Shown: in pieces, positions 49,520 through 59,262 of the stretch
How positions within the stretch are numbered: the first letter of the stretch is position 1
How the letters are laid out: the number at the start of each line of letters is the position of its first letter
IMG/VR virus record: IMGVR_UViG_3300027833_000021
Location: 1 to 64,000 of that record
DNA length: 64,000 nt
Reading direction: 5' to 3' (one strand)
DNA from: a virus
Notes under the pieces: model-generated
Database searches by the model: none
Told to the model about the DNA's origin: nothing
The model's input: only the letters and a program-made list of their open reading frames with translations
Translations under genes and position numbers: made by a program

Positions 49520-49831
49520 ATGCTAAAAGAAAATACATATCAAAGCGGTGACATTGTAACTTTATACTTACAAACAGGACAAGAAATTTTAGGTAAATTC
49601 GTGTCTGAAGATACGACTTCAACTGTTATTACTAAACCATTGACTATCGCAATGGGACCAAAAGGTGCGGCATTTCAAACATTCACTGTAACTGGTGATA
49701 GTGAGAAAGAAGTTCACTTTAAGTCAAATAAGATTATTTCAGTATTAAAGACTAGAAAAGATACGGCTGATTCATATACTCAAGCAACATCTACAATCAT
49801 AACTCCTGACAAAGGGGGCTTGATAACATAA
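49520..49831 (+). CDS. Small beta-rich (Sm-like) conserved phage protein
   Basis: GDIVTL.L.TG.EILGK...I.KP. Confidence 0.55.
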   Translation: MLKENTYQSGDIVTLYLQTGQEILGKFVSEDTTSTVITKPLTIAMGPKGAAFQTFTVTGDSEKEVHFKSNKIISVLKTRKDTADSYTQATSTIITPDKGGLIT

Positions 49832-50628
49832 TGCCACAGGCCGCTAGAACAACTGACCCTATTTCTGCCCACAATCCTTGTGGCGAAGAAAGATGTGGTG
49901 CCGGTAGTTCTGACGTTATCATTCAAAATCTACAAGCATATCGAGTTACTGACCAAACTGAACCACACGGTGTTCCAAAACCAAGAGTAGGTTGTGTTCC
50001 ACACGTTACTCAATTAGTACAAGGTTCATCAAACGTTTATATAAACTCCAGCCCTGCAGGAAGAGTAGGAGATTCTCATTCTTGTGGCGTTATAATTACA
50101 TCAGGTTCAGATAAAGTTTATATTAATGGTGGCGGTACACCAGGTGTAGAAGCAAGAGTTATAAACCATCATCCACCGGCACAAGCGTTCTCAAGTGTTC
50201 CTAATGATTTAACTGATTACATAAAGTCTAAAGAACAGTTTAGTCCAAATGCATTCTGGGACCACAAACAATATACTAATGGTTATGGAACAGAAGCATT
50301 AAGTTCTACAGAAAGTATATCAGAAGAAGAAGCAGTACGTAGATTAAACGAAGACCTAACACAACGTAGAAATTTTGTTGCTACCTATTCTGCTAATAAT
50401 AATCGCAATTGGTCTCCTGACCAAATTGATGCTCTTACTAGTTTCGTATTTAATTTAGGTACAGGTACACTTAACCAAGTAACTAATGGCGGAACTCGTA
50501 CAGATGCCGAAATCGCAGATTCTATGTTACTATATGATAAAGCAACAGTAAATGGCGTATTACAATCTCTTCCTGGACTTACTACACGTAGAACAGAAGA
50601 AAGTGATTGGTTTAAAAGAGGAATGTAA
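49831..50628 (+). CDS. PAAR spike-tip protein fused to GH24-type lysozyme
   Basis: AARTTD, AYRVTD, PAGRVGD, GS..V.IN; C-domain KEQFSPNAFWD..QYTNGYG, DALTSFVFNLG, GLTTRRTEE. Confidence 0.8.
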   Translation: MPQAARTTDPISAHNPCGEERCGAGSSDVIIQNLQAYRVTDQTEPHGVPKPRVGCVPHVTQLVQGSSNVYINSSPAGRVGDSHSCGVIITSGSDKVYINGGGTPGVEARVINHHPPAQAFSSVPNDLTDYIKSKEQFSPNAFWDHKQYTNGYGTEALSSTESISEEEAVRRLNEDLTQRRNFVATYSANNNRNWSPDQIDALTSFVFNLGTGTLNQVTNGGTRTDAEIADSMLLYDKATVNGVLQSLPGLTTRRTEESDWFKRGM

Positions 50629-50630
50629 TA

Positions 50631-52430
50631 ATGGCTAGTGAAGCAGAAATCGAAAGACTATATCAATTATTTGTAGCGAATGGTGGCGGAGCATTTTCAT
50701 TTTCTAATACAAATCTGACACCGAAACAATATTCTGAAGCAGTAAACGCCTCAAATCTAACACCATTAGAAATGGCACAGTTAGAAGCAAGGCAACATCA
50801 GTATAATAGACAAAAAGCATTAAACACAATAGCAGATGAAATTGATGCTAATACATTTACTAATCCTTATGCGGCTAGGTCAACTTATGGAAGTTCACTG
50901 TTTTCTAACTTAGGCACATCACAAGGTTCTATCAATGCAGGATTACTTGCTGGTGGTTTTAGTGGATATAGCGATGCCAATAGGGCACTAGTTGTTGCAG
51001 GAGTTTTATCAGCAACAGGTGTAGACTTAGAGAATATTATAAAAATTGCAGGATTAACTGCGTTGGGTACTACGATGTATTCATCATTAAGTAATCACAC
51101 GAATAATCAAACAGCAAACTTGCCAAAAACATTAGAAGATGCAAATTCTTTATCTAGTATGAATGCACAGTTTGGTGAACAAGGCGACCCATGTGGATTC
51201 TTCAATCAAATAATGGGAATATTAAGTGGTATATTTAATGGTACTTTAGATTTTATTGAAACAGGAATTGGTGATATAATTTCTTTGGTAAATGCAACAG
51301 GTATTCCAGCAATATTATCAAGTATCCTTTCAGCATTAACATCTGCTGGCGGCATTGTTGCGACTGGAATTGCAGGAGTAGTTGGATTGATTGCTGGTGG
51401 AATAGCAACGATTTTACAACAATTATCACCTCTAGTTGGAAAAATTATTAATGCAATTGGCGATATCACTACACAAATCGCTTCAGAGATTGCTTCTCTT
51501 GCCGATATGGCTGCCTCTCTTATAAGAAAAGCATTAGCATTACTTATTGGAAGTGCGGCAACTGACCCTTGTAAACAAAATGTATTGAAAAACACAGGTT
51601 CACCTGCCATGCAAGGTGCAATTGCTCAACTAAATCAACCATTAGGACATGGCAATCCTCATAATATACCAACAACTTTAGATGATAGAGCAAATCCAGA
51701 TGAAGTGACAAAGAAACTTACAGCGGCAAAAGCCGAAGCATTGTTAAAGGCTGGTGTACCTCAATCACCATTTACAGATGCGGCAAAAGAATATACTACA
51801 AATGATTCTGTATTACATTCTTCAGCAGAAACAACATCTGTCCGTCCAAAATCAAGACCATCGTCTAATACTACATACACAACTACAGGAGAAGCAACAT
51901 CATCTAGTAGTTTTGATGAAGAATTAATGCCAACAAGAAAAGCCGGCGAAACTATGGACGAATTTATGAAGCGTATTGGTGCAACAAGACAGGCAACAGT
52001 TGAAGAAAGAGAATCAGAAGCAATGAAGAGCCGAGAAGTAGTTTCACTACAAGTTCGAGCAATGGTAAGAGAATGGCAACCAAAACAATTAGACTATACA
52101 AGAGATTCAAGGGCATTAATGAGTAAGATGCGTTTTGCTTTGGATACTAAGAATTTTACAAACAAAACTTCACTAAAGAGTAGGTTGAAACAATTACTTG
52201 ATATTCAATACGATAACCAAGTAAGAGTAGAAAATTTAACAAATCAATATGCGGAAGCATTCAAATACTGGACTGATGGTGGTATACCAAATAAAGTAAC
52301 AGAAGCAAAACTTAGACTTCAATATAATGCTCGTATCAGACCAGCACAAACTCGTACATATAATAATGCAGTTTCTTCTAAAAATGCAGTAGAAACCGAA
52401 TGGAATAGTATTGACAGTCAGTTGTATTAA
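50631..52430 (+). CDS. Hypothetical tail-associated protein with long hydrophobic Gly/Ala/Ile region
   Basis: 599 aa; follows PAAR gene. Confidence 0.6.
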   Translation: MASEAEIERLYQLFVANGGGAFSFSNTNLTPKQYSEAVNASNLTPLEMAQLEARQHQYNRQKALNTIADEIDANTFTNPYAARSTYGSSLFSNLGTSQGSINAGLLAGGFSGYSDANRALVVAGVLSATGVDLENIIKIAGLTALGTTMYSSLSNHTNNQTANLPKTLEDANSLSSMNAQFGEQGDPCGFFNQIMGILSGIFNGTLDFIETGIGDIISLVNATGIPAILSSILSALTSAGGIVATGIAGVVGLIAGGIATILQQLSPLVGKIINAIGDITTQIASEIASLADMAASLIRKALALLIGSAATDPCKQNVLKNTGSPAMQGAIAQLNQPLGHGNPHNIPTTLDDRANPDEVTKKLTAAKAEALLKAGVPQSPFTDAAKEYTTNDSVLHSSAETTSVRPKSRPSSNTTYTTTGEATSSSSFDEELMPTRKAGETMDEFMKRIGATRQATVEERESEAMKSREVVSLQVRAMVREWQPKQLDYTRDSRALMSKMRFALDTKNFTNKTSLKSRLKQLLDIQYDNQVRVENLTNQYAEAFKYWTDGGIPNKVTEAKLRLQYNARIRPAQTRTYNNAVSSKNAVETEWNSIDSQLY

Positions 52431-52474
52431 TGTTATAATATTCAGTAAGATAATCACAAACTTTAAGATAAATA
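52411..52474 (+). promoter_or_regulatory. Tandem sigma70 promoter (52411-52439) and late box GATAAATA (52467-52474)
   Basis: TTGACA-N17-TATAAT plus octamer. Confidence 0.65.
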
Positions 52475-53224: not shown

Positions 53225-54070
53225 ATGGTAATAGTAGATAAGTTGGCTGAATATAGAAAAGATATTGACTTAAATTTTATCAAAAAGACACACGTTCATT
53301 ATTGTACACCCTGTTACGCTGGACAAATTTCAGAACCATATTTTAGGTCATGGACTAAAGGTCACATGATGTTCACAAAATATGATATTCCATATACATT
53401 AACTACCTCAGCAAATGAGAGTTTAATATCACGTGCAAGATGTCATATGGTTGCATACTTCATGGCTAATCCAGAAGCAACACATATGATGTTTATCGAT
53501 GCAGATATTAATTTCGATGCTATGGATATATTGCATATGTTACAACATGATAAAGACATTATTGTTGGTGCATATCCGAAAAAACAATTAGACTGGGAAT
53601 CTATTAAAGACGCATCAGAAAGAGGATTAGATATAGGAACACTCAAAGATTGTGCGGCAAATTATGCCATAAATCCTGACTGGGATTATAACGAAGAAAC
53701 TGATACACGCAAATTGCATATCGAAGATGGAGTAGTACGGCTTAAAGATGCCGCAACAGGCTTCATGCTTATTAAACGAAGTGTTATAGAAAAAATGGTA
53801 GAAGCATATCCTGAAATGCACTTCAATAATGATTTACACTTTGAAGAAGAATTTGCTAAATGGACATACCTATTCTTTGATTGTATGCATGAAGAAGGTA
53901 CAAAGAGATACTTAAGTGAAGACTATGCATTTTGTAGAAGATGGCAAGCATTGGGTGGTGAAGTTTGGTTAGACCCACTTGTAAAACTAGACCATGTTGG
54001 TCATTATACATTTAATGGAAACATTGGCAAAATGTTCTATACTTCTTCTCCAAAGATAGAAGATTTATAA
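53225..54070 (+). CDS. GT-A fold glycosyltransferase-like protein
   Basis: ESLISRAR, MFIDADI (DxD), ATGFMLIKR, LSEDYAFC..W, L.H.G. Confidence 0.75.
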   Translation: MVIVDKLAEYRKDIDLNFIKKTHVHYCTPCYAGQISEPYFRSWTKGHMMFTKYDIPYTLTTSANESLISRARCHMVAYFMANPEATHMMFIDADINFDAMDILHMLQHDKDIIVGAYPKKQLDWESIKDASERGLDIGTLKDCAANYAINPDWDYNEETDTRKLHIEDGVVRLKDAATGFMLIKRSVIEKMVEAYPEMHFNNDLHFEEEFAKWTYLFFDCMHEEGTKRYLSEDYAFCRRWQALGGEVWLDPLVKLDHVGHYTFNGNIGKMFYTSSPKIEDL

Positions 54071-54078
54071 TATAAATA
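54071..54078 (+). promoter_or_regulatory. Late promoter TATAAATA (leaderless)
   Basis: Exact consensus; ATG starts 6 nt after last A. Confidence 0.65.
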
Positions 54079-54083
54079 GTAGC

Positions 54084-54545
54084 ATGAAAGATGCTATACA
54101 AAAATGGTTGGATGATTTTGTCACCAAACCTAATCCATTATTAAATGGATTCCCGCCTTGTCCTTATGCAAGAGCGGCAATTGTTGATTATATTGAGACT
54201 AACCATATTCGTTCAGAACTACATGATTTATTAAATAATTGGACAGATGATGTCCAAGTTGTAATCGTACACACATCTACAGATAATTACACACCAGAAC
54301 ATCTTTCCCATATAGTTGATGAGTTTAATGAAATAGCAATGAAACAAGATATTGTTGCTTTAGAAGACCATCCTAATGATGAAGAATTTGTGAATGGTGT
54401 ACATATGAACTTTGGTGAATGTATCATAGTCTTAGTACAAAGATTGAGTAAAGTAAACGAAGCAAGTACAATACTTAAGAAAAAAGGATACTATGATACA
54501 TGGAGTAAAGAAAACTTAGATGATGTCGTCAACTGGAGAGAGTGA
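54084..54545 (+). CDS. DUF1415-like protein
   Basis: W...FV......N...PCPYA, D-H-P motif. Confidence 0.55.
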   Translation: MKDAIQKWLDDFVTKPNPLLNGFPPCPYARAAIVDYIETNHIRSELHDLLNNWTDDVQVVIVHTSTDNYTPEHLSHIVDEFNEIAMKQDIVALEDHPNDEEFVNGVHMNFGECIIVLVQRLSKVNEASTILKKKGYYDTWSKENLDDVVNWRE

Positions 54546-55024
54546 TGAGTTATTCATATGCGAGGATTAATTTAGAAAAAACAAACTATAGTAAAATAGA
54601 TAATTATCAAATACTTCTTAATCCAGTTCCTAAAGAACTAGATGAGATTTACTTTACATATTGTAGGCATCATAATTTTAGTAGTGTTATGCCTATATTT
54701 GATTCTGAATACTATGATAATGATGTTATAGGATATTATGACGGAGATGTACTAGTTGCATTTTCTCTTATAACAAGATATAATGATGAGAATGCAGAGT
54801 GTTTGCAATTCGCATGGGATTATAATAAACCAAAGATGTTTTTAGGTCTTGCAAGTTTAAGAAATGAATGTGCTATGTACAAAGAATTAGGTTTTAAATA
54901 TCTTTATGTTGGTGGTGCAGATGCATATAAAAACAACATGGATGGGTTAGAAATTATGACACCCGTTTCATGGATAGATAATAGGTGGAGAATAGATGGA
55001 TTCGAAAAAGTACAAGGTAAATGA
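54542..55024 (+). CDS. Aminoacyl-tRNA-protein transferase (ATE/Bpt C-terminal)-like GNAT protein
   Basis: YYDGDVLVAFS, FAWDY..PKMFLGLASL..E....KELGFKYLYVG...YK. Confidence 0.6.
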   Translation: MMSYSYARINLEKTNYSKIDNYQILLNPVPKELDEIYFTYCRHHNFSSVMPIFDSEYYDNDVIGYYDGDVLVAFSLITRYNDENAECLQFAWDYNKPKMFLGLASLRNECAMYKELGFKYLYVGGADAYKNNMDGLEIMTPVSWIDNRWRIDGFEKVQGK

Positions 55025-56180
55025 AGTAAACGCATGGAATGGATGGGATCCGTTAAAGCAAGTAGTTCTTGGTAATTGTTTCCCACCTGAGTTCTTCGAG
55101 GATGTGAAAGACACAAAACTCAGAGACTTATTACAACGTCTACTATATGAAACAAGAGAAGATTTACAAAATATTCAAAATACACTTGAGGGTTTAGGGG
55201 TAGAAGTAGTTCGTATGCCAGAATATGGCATGACTAATTTTCCTTTAGTGCGACATGAAAGCCCAAAGACGATAAACGAAGCCGCTGAACTAGGTATGCA
55301 AGGTGCATATAGAGACGGTAAAGTTCACGGTTTTCCTAAACCTTGTCTTACTCCACGTGATGATATTATAACTCTTGGTAATAAATGTTTGTTTACTAGT
55401 AATCTATTAGACAATGTTATAGAGGATGGTGAGATATTTAATCCTGACCACTTAGATTTGTTTAGTCAAAAAGAATGGAATTTATACAGACAAGGTAAAG
55501 TATTAAAAGGACCATTAAATCCTACACCTCATTTAATAAAAGATGCTACTGAACAAAGAAGATTTGATGCATCATTCCAGTTTTGGGCACCACTCATACA
55601 TAGGGTTGGCGACAGACTTGTTGTAGACCAACAAGATTGGGCAAATCTATCTGATGTAATATTGAAAAGATATCCACAATTCACAGCGGCAAATATTGCA
55701 GTTGGTGGACACACAGATGGTTCAATGAATTTACCAAAACCTGGACTTGTTATATGTGGTGATTGGATGGGACCAGAAGACTTTAAACATACATTGCCTG
55801 GATGGGATGTATTGAGAATAGAACATCCAAATCAGACAAAAAGTGAGTTTGGAAGTTGGGCTGATGAGAAACATATCACACAGGGAAGATGGTGGACACC
55901 AGAAGCAAAATCTAATCCTGAACTTGTAGATTTTGTAGACAATTGGTTAACTAATTGGGTAGGTTATGCAGAAGAAAGCATATTTGAAGTAAATATGTTA
56001 TCTGTAAATCCAGAAACGATATTAAGTTTGAACTATCAACCAGAAGTACATAACGCACTGAAAAAACACGGAATAGAACCAATCTATTGTAGATTTAGAC
56101 ACAGAAACTTTTGGGATGGTGGATTACACTGTTTAACAGTTGATACAGTAAGAGAGGGCGGAATACAGTCATATTTTTAG
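54996..56180 (+). CDS. Amidinotransferase (glycine/inosamine-phosphate amidinotransferase family)
   Basis: N.WDPLKQVVLG, PRDD, HTDG, VNMLSV, GGLHCLT.D. Confidence 0.85.
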   Translation: MDSKKYKVNEVNAWNGWDPLKQVVLGNCFPPEFFEDVKDTKLRDLLQRLLYETREDLQNIQNTLEGLGVEVVRMPEYGMTNFPLVRHESPKTINEAAELGMQGAYRDGKVHGFPKPCLTPRDDIITLGNKCLFTSNLLDNVIEDGEIFNPDHLDLFSQKEWNLYRQGKVLKGPLNPTPHLIKDATEQRRFDASFQFWAPLIHRVGDRLVVDQQDWANLSDVILKRYPQFTAANIAVGGHTDGSMNLPKPGLVICGDWMGPEDFKHTLPGWDVLRIEHPNQTKSEFGSWADEKHITQGRWWTPEAKSNPELVDFVDNWLTNWVGYAEESIFEVNMLSVNPETILSLNYQPEVHNALKKHGIEPIYCRFRHRNFWDGGLHCLTVDTVREGGIQSYF

Positions 56181-56248: not shown

Positions 56249-56509
56249 ATGAGTATGGTTTATTGTACAAAATATGGCAAAGAATTGCCTGCCCTAACAA
56301 CTGCACCTTTTCCTGGCGAAGCAGGTGAAAAAATCTTAAATGAAATCTCAGCACAAGCATGGTTTGAATGGCTTGAGATGCAGACTATGTTTATCAACGA
56401 AAATCAATTAAACATGATGGACCCACAGGCTAGAGAGTTTCTAGCAGAACGAAGAGATGAATTTCTTTTCGAAGGTGGTGATATTATTGAACCGCCAGAG
56501 CCTATCTAA
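56249..56509 (+). CDS. yggX: Fe(II)-trafficking/oxidative damage protection protein YggX
   Basis: V.C.K...E...L...P.PGE.G..I...IS..AW..W...QTM.INE..L. Confidence 0.9.
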   Translation: MSMVYCTKYGKELPALTTAPFPGEAGEKILNEISAQAWFEWLEMQTMFINENQLNMMDPQAREFLAERRDEFLFEGGDIIEPPEPI

Positions 56510-56904
56510 TGAAAGAGTTGACTTATCAACTTCATGCGGCAGATGTTCCATTGAATATGCATGGAAGCGTAACGGGTGCATGGTTGTTTGATGTACTAGA
56601 TAGAGCGGCACTTGTTTGGATTAATGAAAACATTACCAACAAAATCAAAGGTGTCTCCGTAGCAACACATACTGCCGATGTAAAGTATCATCAGAGAGTT
56701 TTACAATATGGTTTTGTTTCGGCATATGCTGAATGTATCAGTGTTACTCCTGGTAAGATTACAATTGATGTTGATTTATACAATAGAACACAAGATGAAG
56801 CGGAAGGCGAATTAGCCGTTTCTGGCACATTAGCATTTAGTATGATAGATAATGCTACTTATAGATTAAAAAAAATACCAAGAGAATTCTTAAGTATTAA
56901 ATAG
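56509..56904 (+). CDS. Hotdog-fold acyl-CoA thioesterase (YciA-like)
   Basis: N.HG.V.G.WL...LD.AA, VAT. Confidence 0.7.
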   Translation: MKELTYQLHAADVPLNMHGSVTGAWLFDVLDRAALVWINENITNKIKGVSVATHTADVKYHQRVLQYGFVSAYAECISVTPGKITIDVDLYNRTQDEAEGELAVSGTLAFSMIDNATYRLKKIPREFLSIK

Positions 56905-56912
56905 GAGAATAC

Positions 56913-57815
56913 ATGCAAACAAATGGCAAAGTGCTTGTCACTGGCGGAGCGGGATTTATAGGAACTGAATTAGTACAACAGTTACACAATAAAGGTTATG
57001 AAATAACCATCTTGGATAAACAAGAAAAACCAATCGGTCTAGACCATGTGAAATATATTCAAGGTGATTTGTCAAGTCCTGCAAGATGTGTTATGGCATG
57101 TGCTGGTCAAGATTATGTTATTCATTTGGCAGCCAAAGCCAGAATACCAGAGAGTTTTATTAATCCAGATGCATACTTTGATGCAAATGTAACGGGTACA
57201 AGAAACATCTTAACAGCCGCAAGTGCGGTAGGTATTAGAAAATTTGTGTATGCGGGTTCTAGTTCAGTATATGGAAACAATGTTGCACCTAACAAACCAA
57301 CTCATAAACCAGACCCACTAAATTATTACGCAATGTCAAAGTTATTTGGCGAACATCTATGTAAGCAATACAAAATTATGTTTGATTTGAACTATAACAT
57401 TATGCGTTTCTTTACAGTATACTCTAAAAATCAACCTACTTCTCTTATGTTTGGAAAGTTTGCCCAACTTGTTAAAGAAGGTAAACCAGTCACTATCCAT
57501 GGTGATGGAGAAATGAGAAGAGATTACATACATATTTCTGACGTAGCATCAGCACTTATTGCCAGCATAGAAAGTAAAGTTAAGAACGATACATTCAATG
57601 TAGGAACTGGTAACAATATATCAGTTAATGCAGTTGTTGATATATTAAGAGAATATGCACCAGAATTAGAAGCAATTAACGTAGAAAAACCAAAAGGATA
57701 TGCACCAGAAACATTAGCAGATATTAGCAAGACTAAAAATCTACTACAATGGTCTCCAGATACTTTAATAGTTCCTGGACTAAATGAGATGTTTAAGACT
57801 ATATTTAAGAAATGA
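56913..57815 (+). CDS. NAD-dependent sugar epimerase/dehydratase
   Basis: VTGGAGFIG, HLAA, SSSVYG, YAMSK, RDYIH. Confidence 0.92.
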   Translation: MQTNGKVLVTGGAGFIGTELVQQLHNKGYEITILDKQEKPIGLDHVKYIQGDLSSPARCVMACAGQDYVIHLAAKARIPESFINPDAYFDANVTGTRNILTAASAVGIRKFVYAGSSSVYGNNVAPNKPTHKPDPLNYYAMSKLFGEHLCKQYKIMFDLNYNIMRFFTVYSKNQPTSLMFGKFAQLVKEGKPVTIHGDGEMRRDYIHISDVASALIASIESKVKNDTFNVGTGNNISVNAVVDILREYAPELEAINVEKPKGYAPETLADISKTKNLLQWSPDTLIVPGLNEMFKTIFKK

Positions 57816-58833: not shown

Positions 58834-59262
58834 ATGAAATTAGTAGATAAAACAAATAAGATATTAAAGACTGTCTGCGATGAACATATCATTTCAGAAC
58901 ATTCTGAAAAAATGGCATATGATATGATTTTAGTAATGCAAGAGCATGATGCAATTGGACTTGCCGCACCACAAGTCGGTGAGAATACAGCATTGATGAT
59001 AATTGGTCATAAAGACAATGGTTATGTTGTTTGTTCAAATCCAACGTGGGAAGAAGCAGAAGATAGTGAAGATGAAGAATTCTTAGAAGGATGTGTTAGT
59101 TTTCCTGGATTAGAATTAAAAATCACTAGACCTAATAAGATATTGGGTACATTTACAAATTTAGCAGGAGAAAGAAAAACATCAATGTTCGTAGGAGTAT
59201 GGGCTCAAGCATTTCAACATGAGTGTGACCATCTAAATGGCATTACATTTGATACTCTATAA
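58834..59262 (+). CDS. def: Peptide deformylase
   Basis: IGLAAPQVG, EGCVS, QHECDHLNG. Confidence 0.93.
   Translation: MKLVDKTNKILKTVCDEHIISEHSEKMAYDMILVMQEHDAIGLAAPQVGENTALMIIGHKDNGYVVCSNPTWEEAEDSEDEEFLEGCVSFPGLELKITRPNKILGTFTNLAGERKTSMFVGVWAQAFQHECDHLNGITFDTL

Follow-up and report, generated by a model that had tools for sequence, protein, structure and literature searches.

A phage gene module of a half-size ATE/Bpt-type transferase, a small Cys-Pro protein and an amidinotransferase-family protein that may tailor arginine-derived products

In a 64,000-nucleotide (nt) stretch of DNA from a large marine phage (positions 1–64,000 of record IMGVR_UViG_3300027833_000021, hereafter the window), three overlapping open reading frames, ORF1, ORF2 and ORF3, belong to a gene module that is restricted to phages; it was seen in hundreds of uncultured ones and in nearly no cells. 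The fixed core of the module is the pair formed by ORF1, a small Cys-Pro protein, and ORF2, a half-size relative of the ATE1/Bpt transferases, and ORF3, an amidinotransferase-family protein, can be replaced or accompanied by a DUF6614 protein. We propose, with confidence and doubt about evenly balanced, that ORF1–3 are a phage-specific tailoring module built around arginine/guanidine chemistry, and we favor a small-molecule pathway.

All three genes are on the plus strand. ORF1 spans positions 54084–54545 (153 amino acids, aa) and carries PCPYA at residues 25–29. ORF2 (54545–55024) has 159 aa from its ATG, or 160 aa from an in-frame GTG at 54542, and contains the motif FAWDY..P..LG..SL..EC..YKELGFKYLY.G; its ATG shares one base with the ORF1 stop codon (TGATG). 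ORF3 (54996–56180, 394 aa; PRDD, GGHTDG and GGLHC) overlaps ORF2 by 29 nt. A preliminary description of this DNA had reported three overlapping ORFs following an exact TATAAATA box, and that layout and all of the motifs quoted with it were recovered.

The ORF2 profile collected 83 viral loci. ORF1 adjoined ORF2 in 79, and the remaining 4 ended at a contig edge, so that the two genes were neighbors in 79/79 loci with room for both. Gene sets were counted in the 61 loci that extend 1.5 kb or more to either side: ORF1, ORF2 and ORF3 were present in 22, ORF1, ORF2 and a DUF6614 protein of 110–115 aa in 28, all four genes in 10, and ORF1 and ORF2 alone in a single locus. Both ORF1 and ORF2 were adjacent to ORF3 homologs of at least 45% identity in 27/27 loci. 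Gene order varied (ORF2-DUF6614-ORF1 in loci L026 and L037; a divergent ORF3 in L149 and L167), and adjacency withstood inversions and reordering (L026, L149, L167 and L172). The trio that the preliminary description treated as one unit is thus found together elsewhere.

The phages that carry the module include large marine myoviruses and T4-like genomes in which baseplate hub, tail tube gp19 and UvsY genes are neighbors. ORF2 accounted for more than 1200 protein clusters and at least 550 viral contigs, and ORF3 matched at least 577 viral contigs. Among 185,579 species genomes, ORF2 was found in 2 contigs of metagenome-assembled genomes (MAGs), L086 (a 183-kb contig of a Haliscomenobacter MAG) and L087, which may be binned phage DNA. 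In cultured and deposited phages, tblastn with ORF2 gave no matches at E values up to 1, and the 12-kb region gave no nucleotide matches. The module stretch itself was present in metagenomes of several studies and years. Metatranscriptome contigs from four libraries (four studies) spanned ORF1–3 at 95–99% identity; their strand, starts and true transcription are not readable and DNA carry-over is possible, and they were not counted as expression evidence. No papers on ATE-like or Bpt-like genes of phages, or on the three-gene module, came up in literature searches.

The DUF6614 protein (PF20319) is almost only viral (for example, L055 6438–6773, L047 6420–6767 and L026 6420–6752), and its sole outside lead was coproheme decarboxylase, whose N-terminal domain it matched weakly (E = 0.014). 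Neither a DUF6614 gene nor an AdoMet decarboxylase gene was found in the 115-kb parent record of the window (∼31% complete by CheckV). In 12 of the 83 loci (L004 7575–9518 and 11 more, all of one marine clade), genes for an S-adenosylmethionine (SAM) methyltransferase and a radical SAM enzyme followed ORF3, with UvsY next; in this clade the module is extended to five genes.

ORF2 has 1273 relatives of ∼140–160 aa, many of them with a precomputed ATE_C (PF04377) match. The window protein itself remained below threshold (E = 8e-4, 20.4 bits vs. 25), and ORF2 alone had no sequence matches in the PDB. Over 1.8 billion representatives, the ORF2 profile reached proteins of 225–270 aa that matched along their C-terminal two thirds and that exceed the ATE_C cut-off. 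The ORF2 family aligned with these Bpt-like proteins at 99.95% (hhalign, E = 2e-38), and they in turn matched solved ATE1 at E = 4e-9. ORF2 has a GNAT fold whose top matches include the tRNA-dependent MprF, FemX, L-PGS and Sbb17, alongside ordinary GNATs of similar Z score. This profile chain to ATE1 bears out the resemblance to the C-terminal GNAT domain of ATE1/Bpt that had been noted earlier: ORF2 is a true ATE/Bpt relative, and not an ordinary acetyltransferase without an ATE-like fold.

In Kluyveromyces lactis Ate1 (klAte1), Trp260 contributes to Arg-tRNA binding, Ser273 and Glu277 lie in the Arg side-chain pocket, and Lys304 is an active-site residue (PMC9351520). Binding of the Arg of Arg-tRNA requires an acidic side chain at position 277, where Bpt, a Leu transferase, carries Gln (PMC9351520). 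ORF2 residues W92, S105, E109 and K130, which are invariant or nearly so, align with klAte1 Trp260, Ser273, Glu277 and Lys304, respectively. The invariant Glu109 at the Glu277 position points to a basic aminoacyl-tRNA as the predicted donor, most simply Arg-tRNA. On the acceptor side, ORF2 begins at an R-I-x-L motif that in the longer relatives follows the N-terminal region, so that the region N-terminal of the motif (the ATE_N part) is absent. In klAte1 the N-terminal part holds the residues that recognize N-terminal Asp/Glu, R80 and Y87 (PMC9351520). Judged from these alignments, ORF2 appears to keep the donor half of an ATE/Bpt enzyme and to be without the known acceptor half. ORF1 was considered as a split-off N-terminal domain of a Bpt-like protein and rejected: it was unrelated to the ATE_N-type region (hhalign, 0.2%), and an hmmsearch of the long relatives picked up nothing but a 61-aa fragment.

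The ORF1 profile matched 3580 proteins. Invariant in the family are one Cys in P-C-P-(Y/F)-A, a D-H-P motif, and a Glu, Asn, Tyr, Trp and Arg. The label "DUF1415-like" given to ORF1 in the preliminary description proved a weak but real lead, and a match to DUF6875 was commoner. Among 26 family members, DUF6875 was matched by 11 (best E = 3e-5), DUF1415 by 2 and YqcI_YcgG (PF08892) by 1 (E = 0.046). The window protein matched DUF6875 below the cut-off (E = 0.041, 14.4 bits vs. 24.5), and PF08892 gave no match to it. An Atlas feature search with ORF1 listed DUF1415/DUF6875 clusters at 0.92. When DUF1415 and YqcI/YcgG proteins taken from Bacteroidota genomes were compared with ORF1 profile against profile, the DUF1415 alignment scored 82.8% (hhalign, E = 9e-6, over the N-terminal 50 columns) and the YqcI/YcgG alignments were weak (10%, E = 3e-3, and 16.5%, E = 1.5e-3). 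The invariant Cys26 of ORF1 paired with the family Cys in all three comparisons. A GntA-like YqcI profile did not recover AglA in the PDB, which indicates great divergence within the YqcI/YcgG family.

Enzymes of that family have a sandwich fold with a four-stranded sheet and an N-terminal Cys ligand in an FPC motif. In structural comparisons ORF1 matched AglA best, and no other match spans nearly the whole chain; AglA binds its heme through an N-terminal Cys, and its helices and strands appear to follow one another in ORF1 as described for AglA. TusA-type structural matches begin after the Cys (model residues 29–121). AglA and GntA-like proteins have 230–274 aa and a C-terminal CP(F/Y); ORF1, which ends at residue 153, is ∼80 residues shorter than the YqcI/YcgG enzymes and is without their C-terminal substrate loop and CPF motif. 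We give roughly equal weight to ORF1 being a thiolate-heme protein of YqcI/YcgG-like fold and to its being something else. ORF1-like genes also stand in Syn1 (L084 2881–3420), just 5′ of baseplate gp25, and in the podovirus HMO-2011 (L085 2980–3507), in neither case with ORF2.

ORF3 as a single sequence matched only the C-terminal 60 residues of SxtG, StrB1, HsvA and AGAT (1e-6), and the window protein had no Pfam matches. A profile built from 19 family members matched AGAT (5e-27), SxtG (1.4e-26), HsvA (5.7e-24) and StrB1 (2e-22) with both halves covered. R121, D122, H239, D241 and C379 are invariant in these 19 proteins, and D122, H239, D241 and C379 align with AGAT Asp170, His303, Asp305 and Cys407. 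Following the numbering of the AGAT structure papers, we take Cys407 and His303 to be catalytic, Asp170 and Asp305 to bind the guanidinium group and Asp254 to complete the triad. Most ORF3 relatives carry W, Q, N or S at the Asp254 position, and only L026 has Asp. With the four aligned residues kept and Asp254 replaced, ORF3 is therefore an amidinotransferase-family member with an altered triad; the earlier assignment to the amidinotransferases holds at family level. The family match favors action by transfer over hydrolysis. Stand-alone phage amidinotransferases, 30–34% identical to ORF3 and without ORF1 or ORF2, occur in L158 (1731–6386), L152 (2593–5200), L168 (2074–5089) and L140 (3986–6378); their settings are between nrdA and nrdB, beside nrdB, beside a class II ribonucleotide reductase, or beside a SPASM radical SAM enzyme.

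In the scheme that we favor, ORF2 would draw a basic amino acid, with Arg the likeliest, from aminoacyl-tRNA and place it onto an amine acceptor. That acceptor would not be a protein N-terminal Asp/Glu, because the domain that recognizes it is missing. ORF1, the obligate partner of ORF2, might supply the acceptor site; alternatively, as a minimal YqcI/YcgG-like thiolate-heme protein, it might N-hydroxylate the guanidino group of the conjugate. ORF3 would move an amidino group from arginine to an amine, a step that could either generate the acceptor, such as an amidinated polyamine or amino compound, or decorate the product further. The product would most likely be a small aminoacylated and amidinated metabolite made late in infection. 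Small-molecule tailoring is favored on the combination of an Arg-type donor site and a missing acceptor site in ORF2, a constant partner, ORF1, that resembles enzymes acting on arginyl conjugates, an ORF3 family that moves amidino groups, and the argolaphos and hsv precedents discussed below. In a narrower version, which we offer as a long shot, a minimal pair of half-size Arg-tRNA transferase and miniature thiolate-heme N-hydroxylase, together with the amidinotransferase or the DUF6614 protein, would make an N-hydroxyguanidine or arginyl-amidino metabolite late in infection by phages of several lineages. If so, candidates for the product would include a radical-quenching inhibitor of the class I ribonucleotide reductase of a competitor or the host, an antimicrobial, and a DNA-condensing guanidino-polyamine, and the module would be the first virus-encoded tRNA-dependent natural-product pathway.

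Several observations weigh against this scheme. ORF1-like proteins occur without ORF2 in cultured cyanomyophages, HMO-2011 and roseophages, and ORF1 therefore has a function of its own. A gene for a 2Fe-2S ferredoxin was not found in the 115-kb fragment (∼31% complete). The donor pocket of ORF2 was mapped through short profile alignments (16–40 bits), and two of the four pocket positions are Bpt-like: klAte1 Ser255 and Tyr289 correspond to A/C87 and L121 in ORF2. In ORF3, the position of the AGAT triad Asp254 is W197 (by sequence alignment only), and transfer and hydrolysis are not distinguishable from sequence for this protein. Amidinotransferases 30–36% identical to ORF3 had ORF2 nearby in just 7/42 cases.

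Instead of a small molecule, the target could be a protein. ORF2, with ORF1 as a substitute acceptor-recognition subunit, would then add Arg or another residue from aminoacyl-tRNA to a phage or host protein, either a component of the virion once the prohead or tail has been processed or a host protein that is to be marked for degradation, and ORF3 would amidinate a protein lysine or act separately. This reading, which we consider unlikely, draws on the fact that all characterized ATE_C-family enzymes (ATE1 and Bpt) modify proteins, and on the position of the module among late and structural genes (baseplate hub, gp19 and UvsY, and in the window the PAAR-lysozyme and 599-aa protein genes upstream). 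A virion-associated amidinotransferase was also reported for cyanophage S-SCSM2R (PMC12801897). However, ORF2 is without the ATE_N part that holds R80/Y87-type recognition of N-terminal Asp/Glu, ORF1 shows no relation to it, a ClpS/ClpA-type partner did not appear among the module genes, and AGAT-family enzymes are known to act on small amines and not on proteins. A different doubt concerns ORF1, which might be a Cys-based carrier, redox protein or scaffold (for example, an acceptor or aminoacyl thioester holder for ORF2), so that the product would carry no N-oxidation. We regard this as rather improbable, since AglA is the one near-full-length structural match, the TusA-type matches leave out the Cys, and that Cys aligns with the Cys of both YqcI and DUF1415.

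Modification of DNA or nucleotides is less probable still. An aminoacyl or amidino group would be placed on a base or on the nucleotide pool, evading host restriction. Phages hypermodify bases with amino-acid-derived groups, stand-alone phage amidinotransferases lie among ribonucleotide reductase genes (L152, L158 and L168), and Campylobacter phages with modified guanine carry an amidinotransferase. Against it, the 115-kb fragment (∼31% complete) yielded no homolog of hydroxymethylase-type thymidylate synthase, none of the 83 loci showed a DNA transglycosylase, kinase or glycosylase-fold transferase adjoining the module, and ORF1–3 have no resemblance to DNA-binding enzymes. Finally, the three could be accessory genes with no functional link, kept together by chance or through a shared insertion site, with ORF2 an acyl-CoA-dependent GNAT. 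This we think highly improbable in view of the constancy of ORF1-ORF2 (79/79) and of ORF3 in its clade (27/27), a third partner in 60/61 loci, adjacency that persists through rearrangements, and an ATE1 profile chain that keeps the donor-pocket Glu, Trp and Lys.

The box ahead of the module, TATAAATA, is an exact match on the plus strand at 54071–54078 and ends 5 nt before the ORF1 ATG, so that a transcript from it would have nearly no leader. The window holds 3 copies vs. 8.7 expected; the box noted in the preliminary description is therefore present and is not enriched. Its position is held at exactly −13 from the ORF1 ATG in L002, L003 and L007 despite differing upstream DNA. We take TATAAATA at 54071 to mark a conserved left border of the module, and it may also be a late-promoter element of unusual geometry, with an atypically short or absent leader. 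A second box, GATAAATA, occurs at 18 sites in the window vs. 6.3 expected (18 was reached in 0/100 shuffles), and 17/18 sites are on the plus strand (for example, 2661, 5346, 6936, 14481, 31763, 41477, 46762 and 52467). Most sites lie 19–42 nt ahead of an ATG, and TATAAATA is far closer to ORF1. GATAAATA looks like the late-promoter box of this phage, with G in place of the T of T4.

The nearest typical box upstream of the module is GATAAATA at 52467–52474 on the plus strand, 29 nt before a zeta-toxin-like kinase gene. Just 5′ of it, at 52411–52439, lies a perfect sigma-70 consensus (12/12; TTGACA, 17 nt, TG-TATAAT), which suggests that the kinase gene has dual early and late promoters. On the plus strand between 52500 and 56180, no terminator-like sites were found except for one weak site within ORF3. 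With no convincing terminator among the kinase gene, the gene that follows it and ORF1–3, a longer late transcript running from GATAAATA at 52467 through all of them is plausible.

The gene immediately upstream of ORF1 (53225–54070) had been called a GT-A glycosyltransferase. Its position is as described, and its identity is weakly supported: it matched phrog_1574 (function unknown) at 1e-43 and a glycosyltransferase PHROG at 4e-4, Pfam Anp1 remained below cut-off, and its product had no sequence matches in the PDB. This glycosyltransferase-like gene adjoins the module solely in the closest relatives and is ∼4.8 kb away in L001 and L002, whose module proteins are 97–99% identical. The kinase gene, too, is a neighbor solely in the closest relatives, and neither of these two genes is a member of the conserved module. 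A strain junction lies at 54065–54072, immediately 5′ of TATAAATA, with strain variants diverging at 54065–54070. At this junction, ∼4.8 kb of other DNA, including a 508-aa ORF, can lie between the glycosyltransferase-like gene and ORF1 (L001 and L002, 742–5543); this DNA is carried by metagenome and metatranscriptome contigs and by relatives with 97–99% identical module proteins. Contig ends at 54065–54072 were considered as a mapped transcript start and rejected, as they reflect the strain junction.

The window has a G+C content of 35.6%. All 50 of the longest non-overlapping ORFs (at least 150 aa) are on the plus strand, and gene products of the window include a large terminase, a class I ribonucleotide reductase, helicases and a PAAR-lysozyme protein; no tRNA genes were found in it. 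The last of these proteins (49831–50628) is a PAAR-motif domain fused to an endolysin-like domain, encoded directly 5′ of the gene for a 599-aa Gly/Ala/Ser-rich protein, and is probably a tail-tip or injection protein. On the 3′ side of the module (56249–57815 and 58834–59262) are genes for a YggX-type Fe(2+)-trafficking protein (1.7e-30), a 4HBT thioesterase, an NAD-dependent sugar epimerase/dehydratase and a peptide deformylase, which are kept solely in the closest relatives.

If the proposed scheme is confirmed, viruses would count among those that use aminoacyl-tRNA for purposes other than translation, and ORF2 would be the smallest known ATE-type transferase, with its acceptor half replaced by a separate protein. 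A function would be gained for the DUF6875/DUF1415-like proteins of many marine phages, including cultured cyanophages, and a new phage-made metabolite or modification could be revealed. The ORF1-like proteins of cultured cyanomyophages and podoviruses are systems for studying the ORF1 family.

By analogy, the closest precedent for the ORF1-ORF2 pair would be argolaphos biosynthesis in Streptomyces monomycini, where AMPn-Arg (aminomethylphosphonate-Arg) is made with ArgRS, tRNA and the Arg-tRNA-dependent ligase AglC and its guanidine is then N-hydroxylated by the YqcI/YcgG enzyme AglA; the cluster also holds the GNAT-type tRNA-dependent ligases AlpF and AlpO. Common to both would be an aminoacyl-tRNA-dependent transferase with a small Cys-ligated sandwich-fold protein acting on an arginyl conjugate, features that are predicted for the phage proteins. 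In contrast, AlpF and AlpO are Acetyltransf_6-type GNATs of ∼340 aa and ORF2 is of the ATE_C type, and AglA is ∼90–120 residues longer than ORF1 and has the substrate loop and heme-propionate ligands. Phosphonate genes are present there and absent here, an amidinotransferase is present here and absent there, and the argolaphos cluster is bacterial whereas the module is of phages.

With ATE1 and Bpt, ORF2 shares the ATE_C GNAT core, the (F/I)xWD, LG and Y-x-Y-L-G...YK motifs and the donor-site Trp, acidic residue and Lys. It differs from them in size (∼140–160 aa vs. ∼240 for Bpt and ∼500 for ATE1), in having no ATE_N or equivalent and hence no N-terminal Asp/Glu site, in its constant pairing with ORF1 and in being phage-only. 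For an amidinotransferase combined with amino-acid-adding enzymes, the closest precedent would be the hsv operon of Pseudomonas syringae. Phevamine A is an amidinated, aminoacylated polyamine, and in the hsv operon the AGAT-family HsvA, which is among the PDB matches of ORF3, stands with amino-acid-attaching enzymes. There, however, the amino acids are added by the ATP-grasp ligases HsvB and HsvC and not by a tRNA-dependent GNAT, no ORF1-like protein is present, and the operon is bacterial. ORF3 resembles AGAT, StrB1 and SxtG along its full length and in the catalytic Cys and His and the two guanidinium-binding Asp, and differs from them in W197 for Asp254 and in its low identity to the solved members. 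These comparisons indicate that (i) the enzyme families are already known, as is the principle by which bacterial gene clusters combine them; and (ii) the half-size ATE-type transferase with a separate obligate partner, its combination with an amidinotransferase or DUF6614 protein, and the restriction to phages are new.

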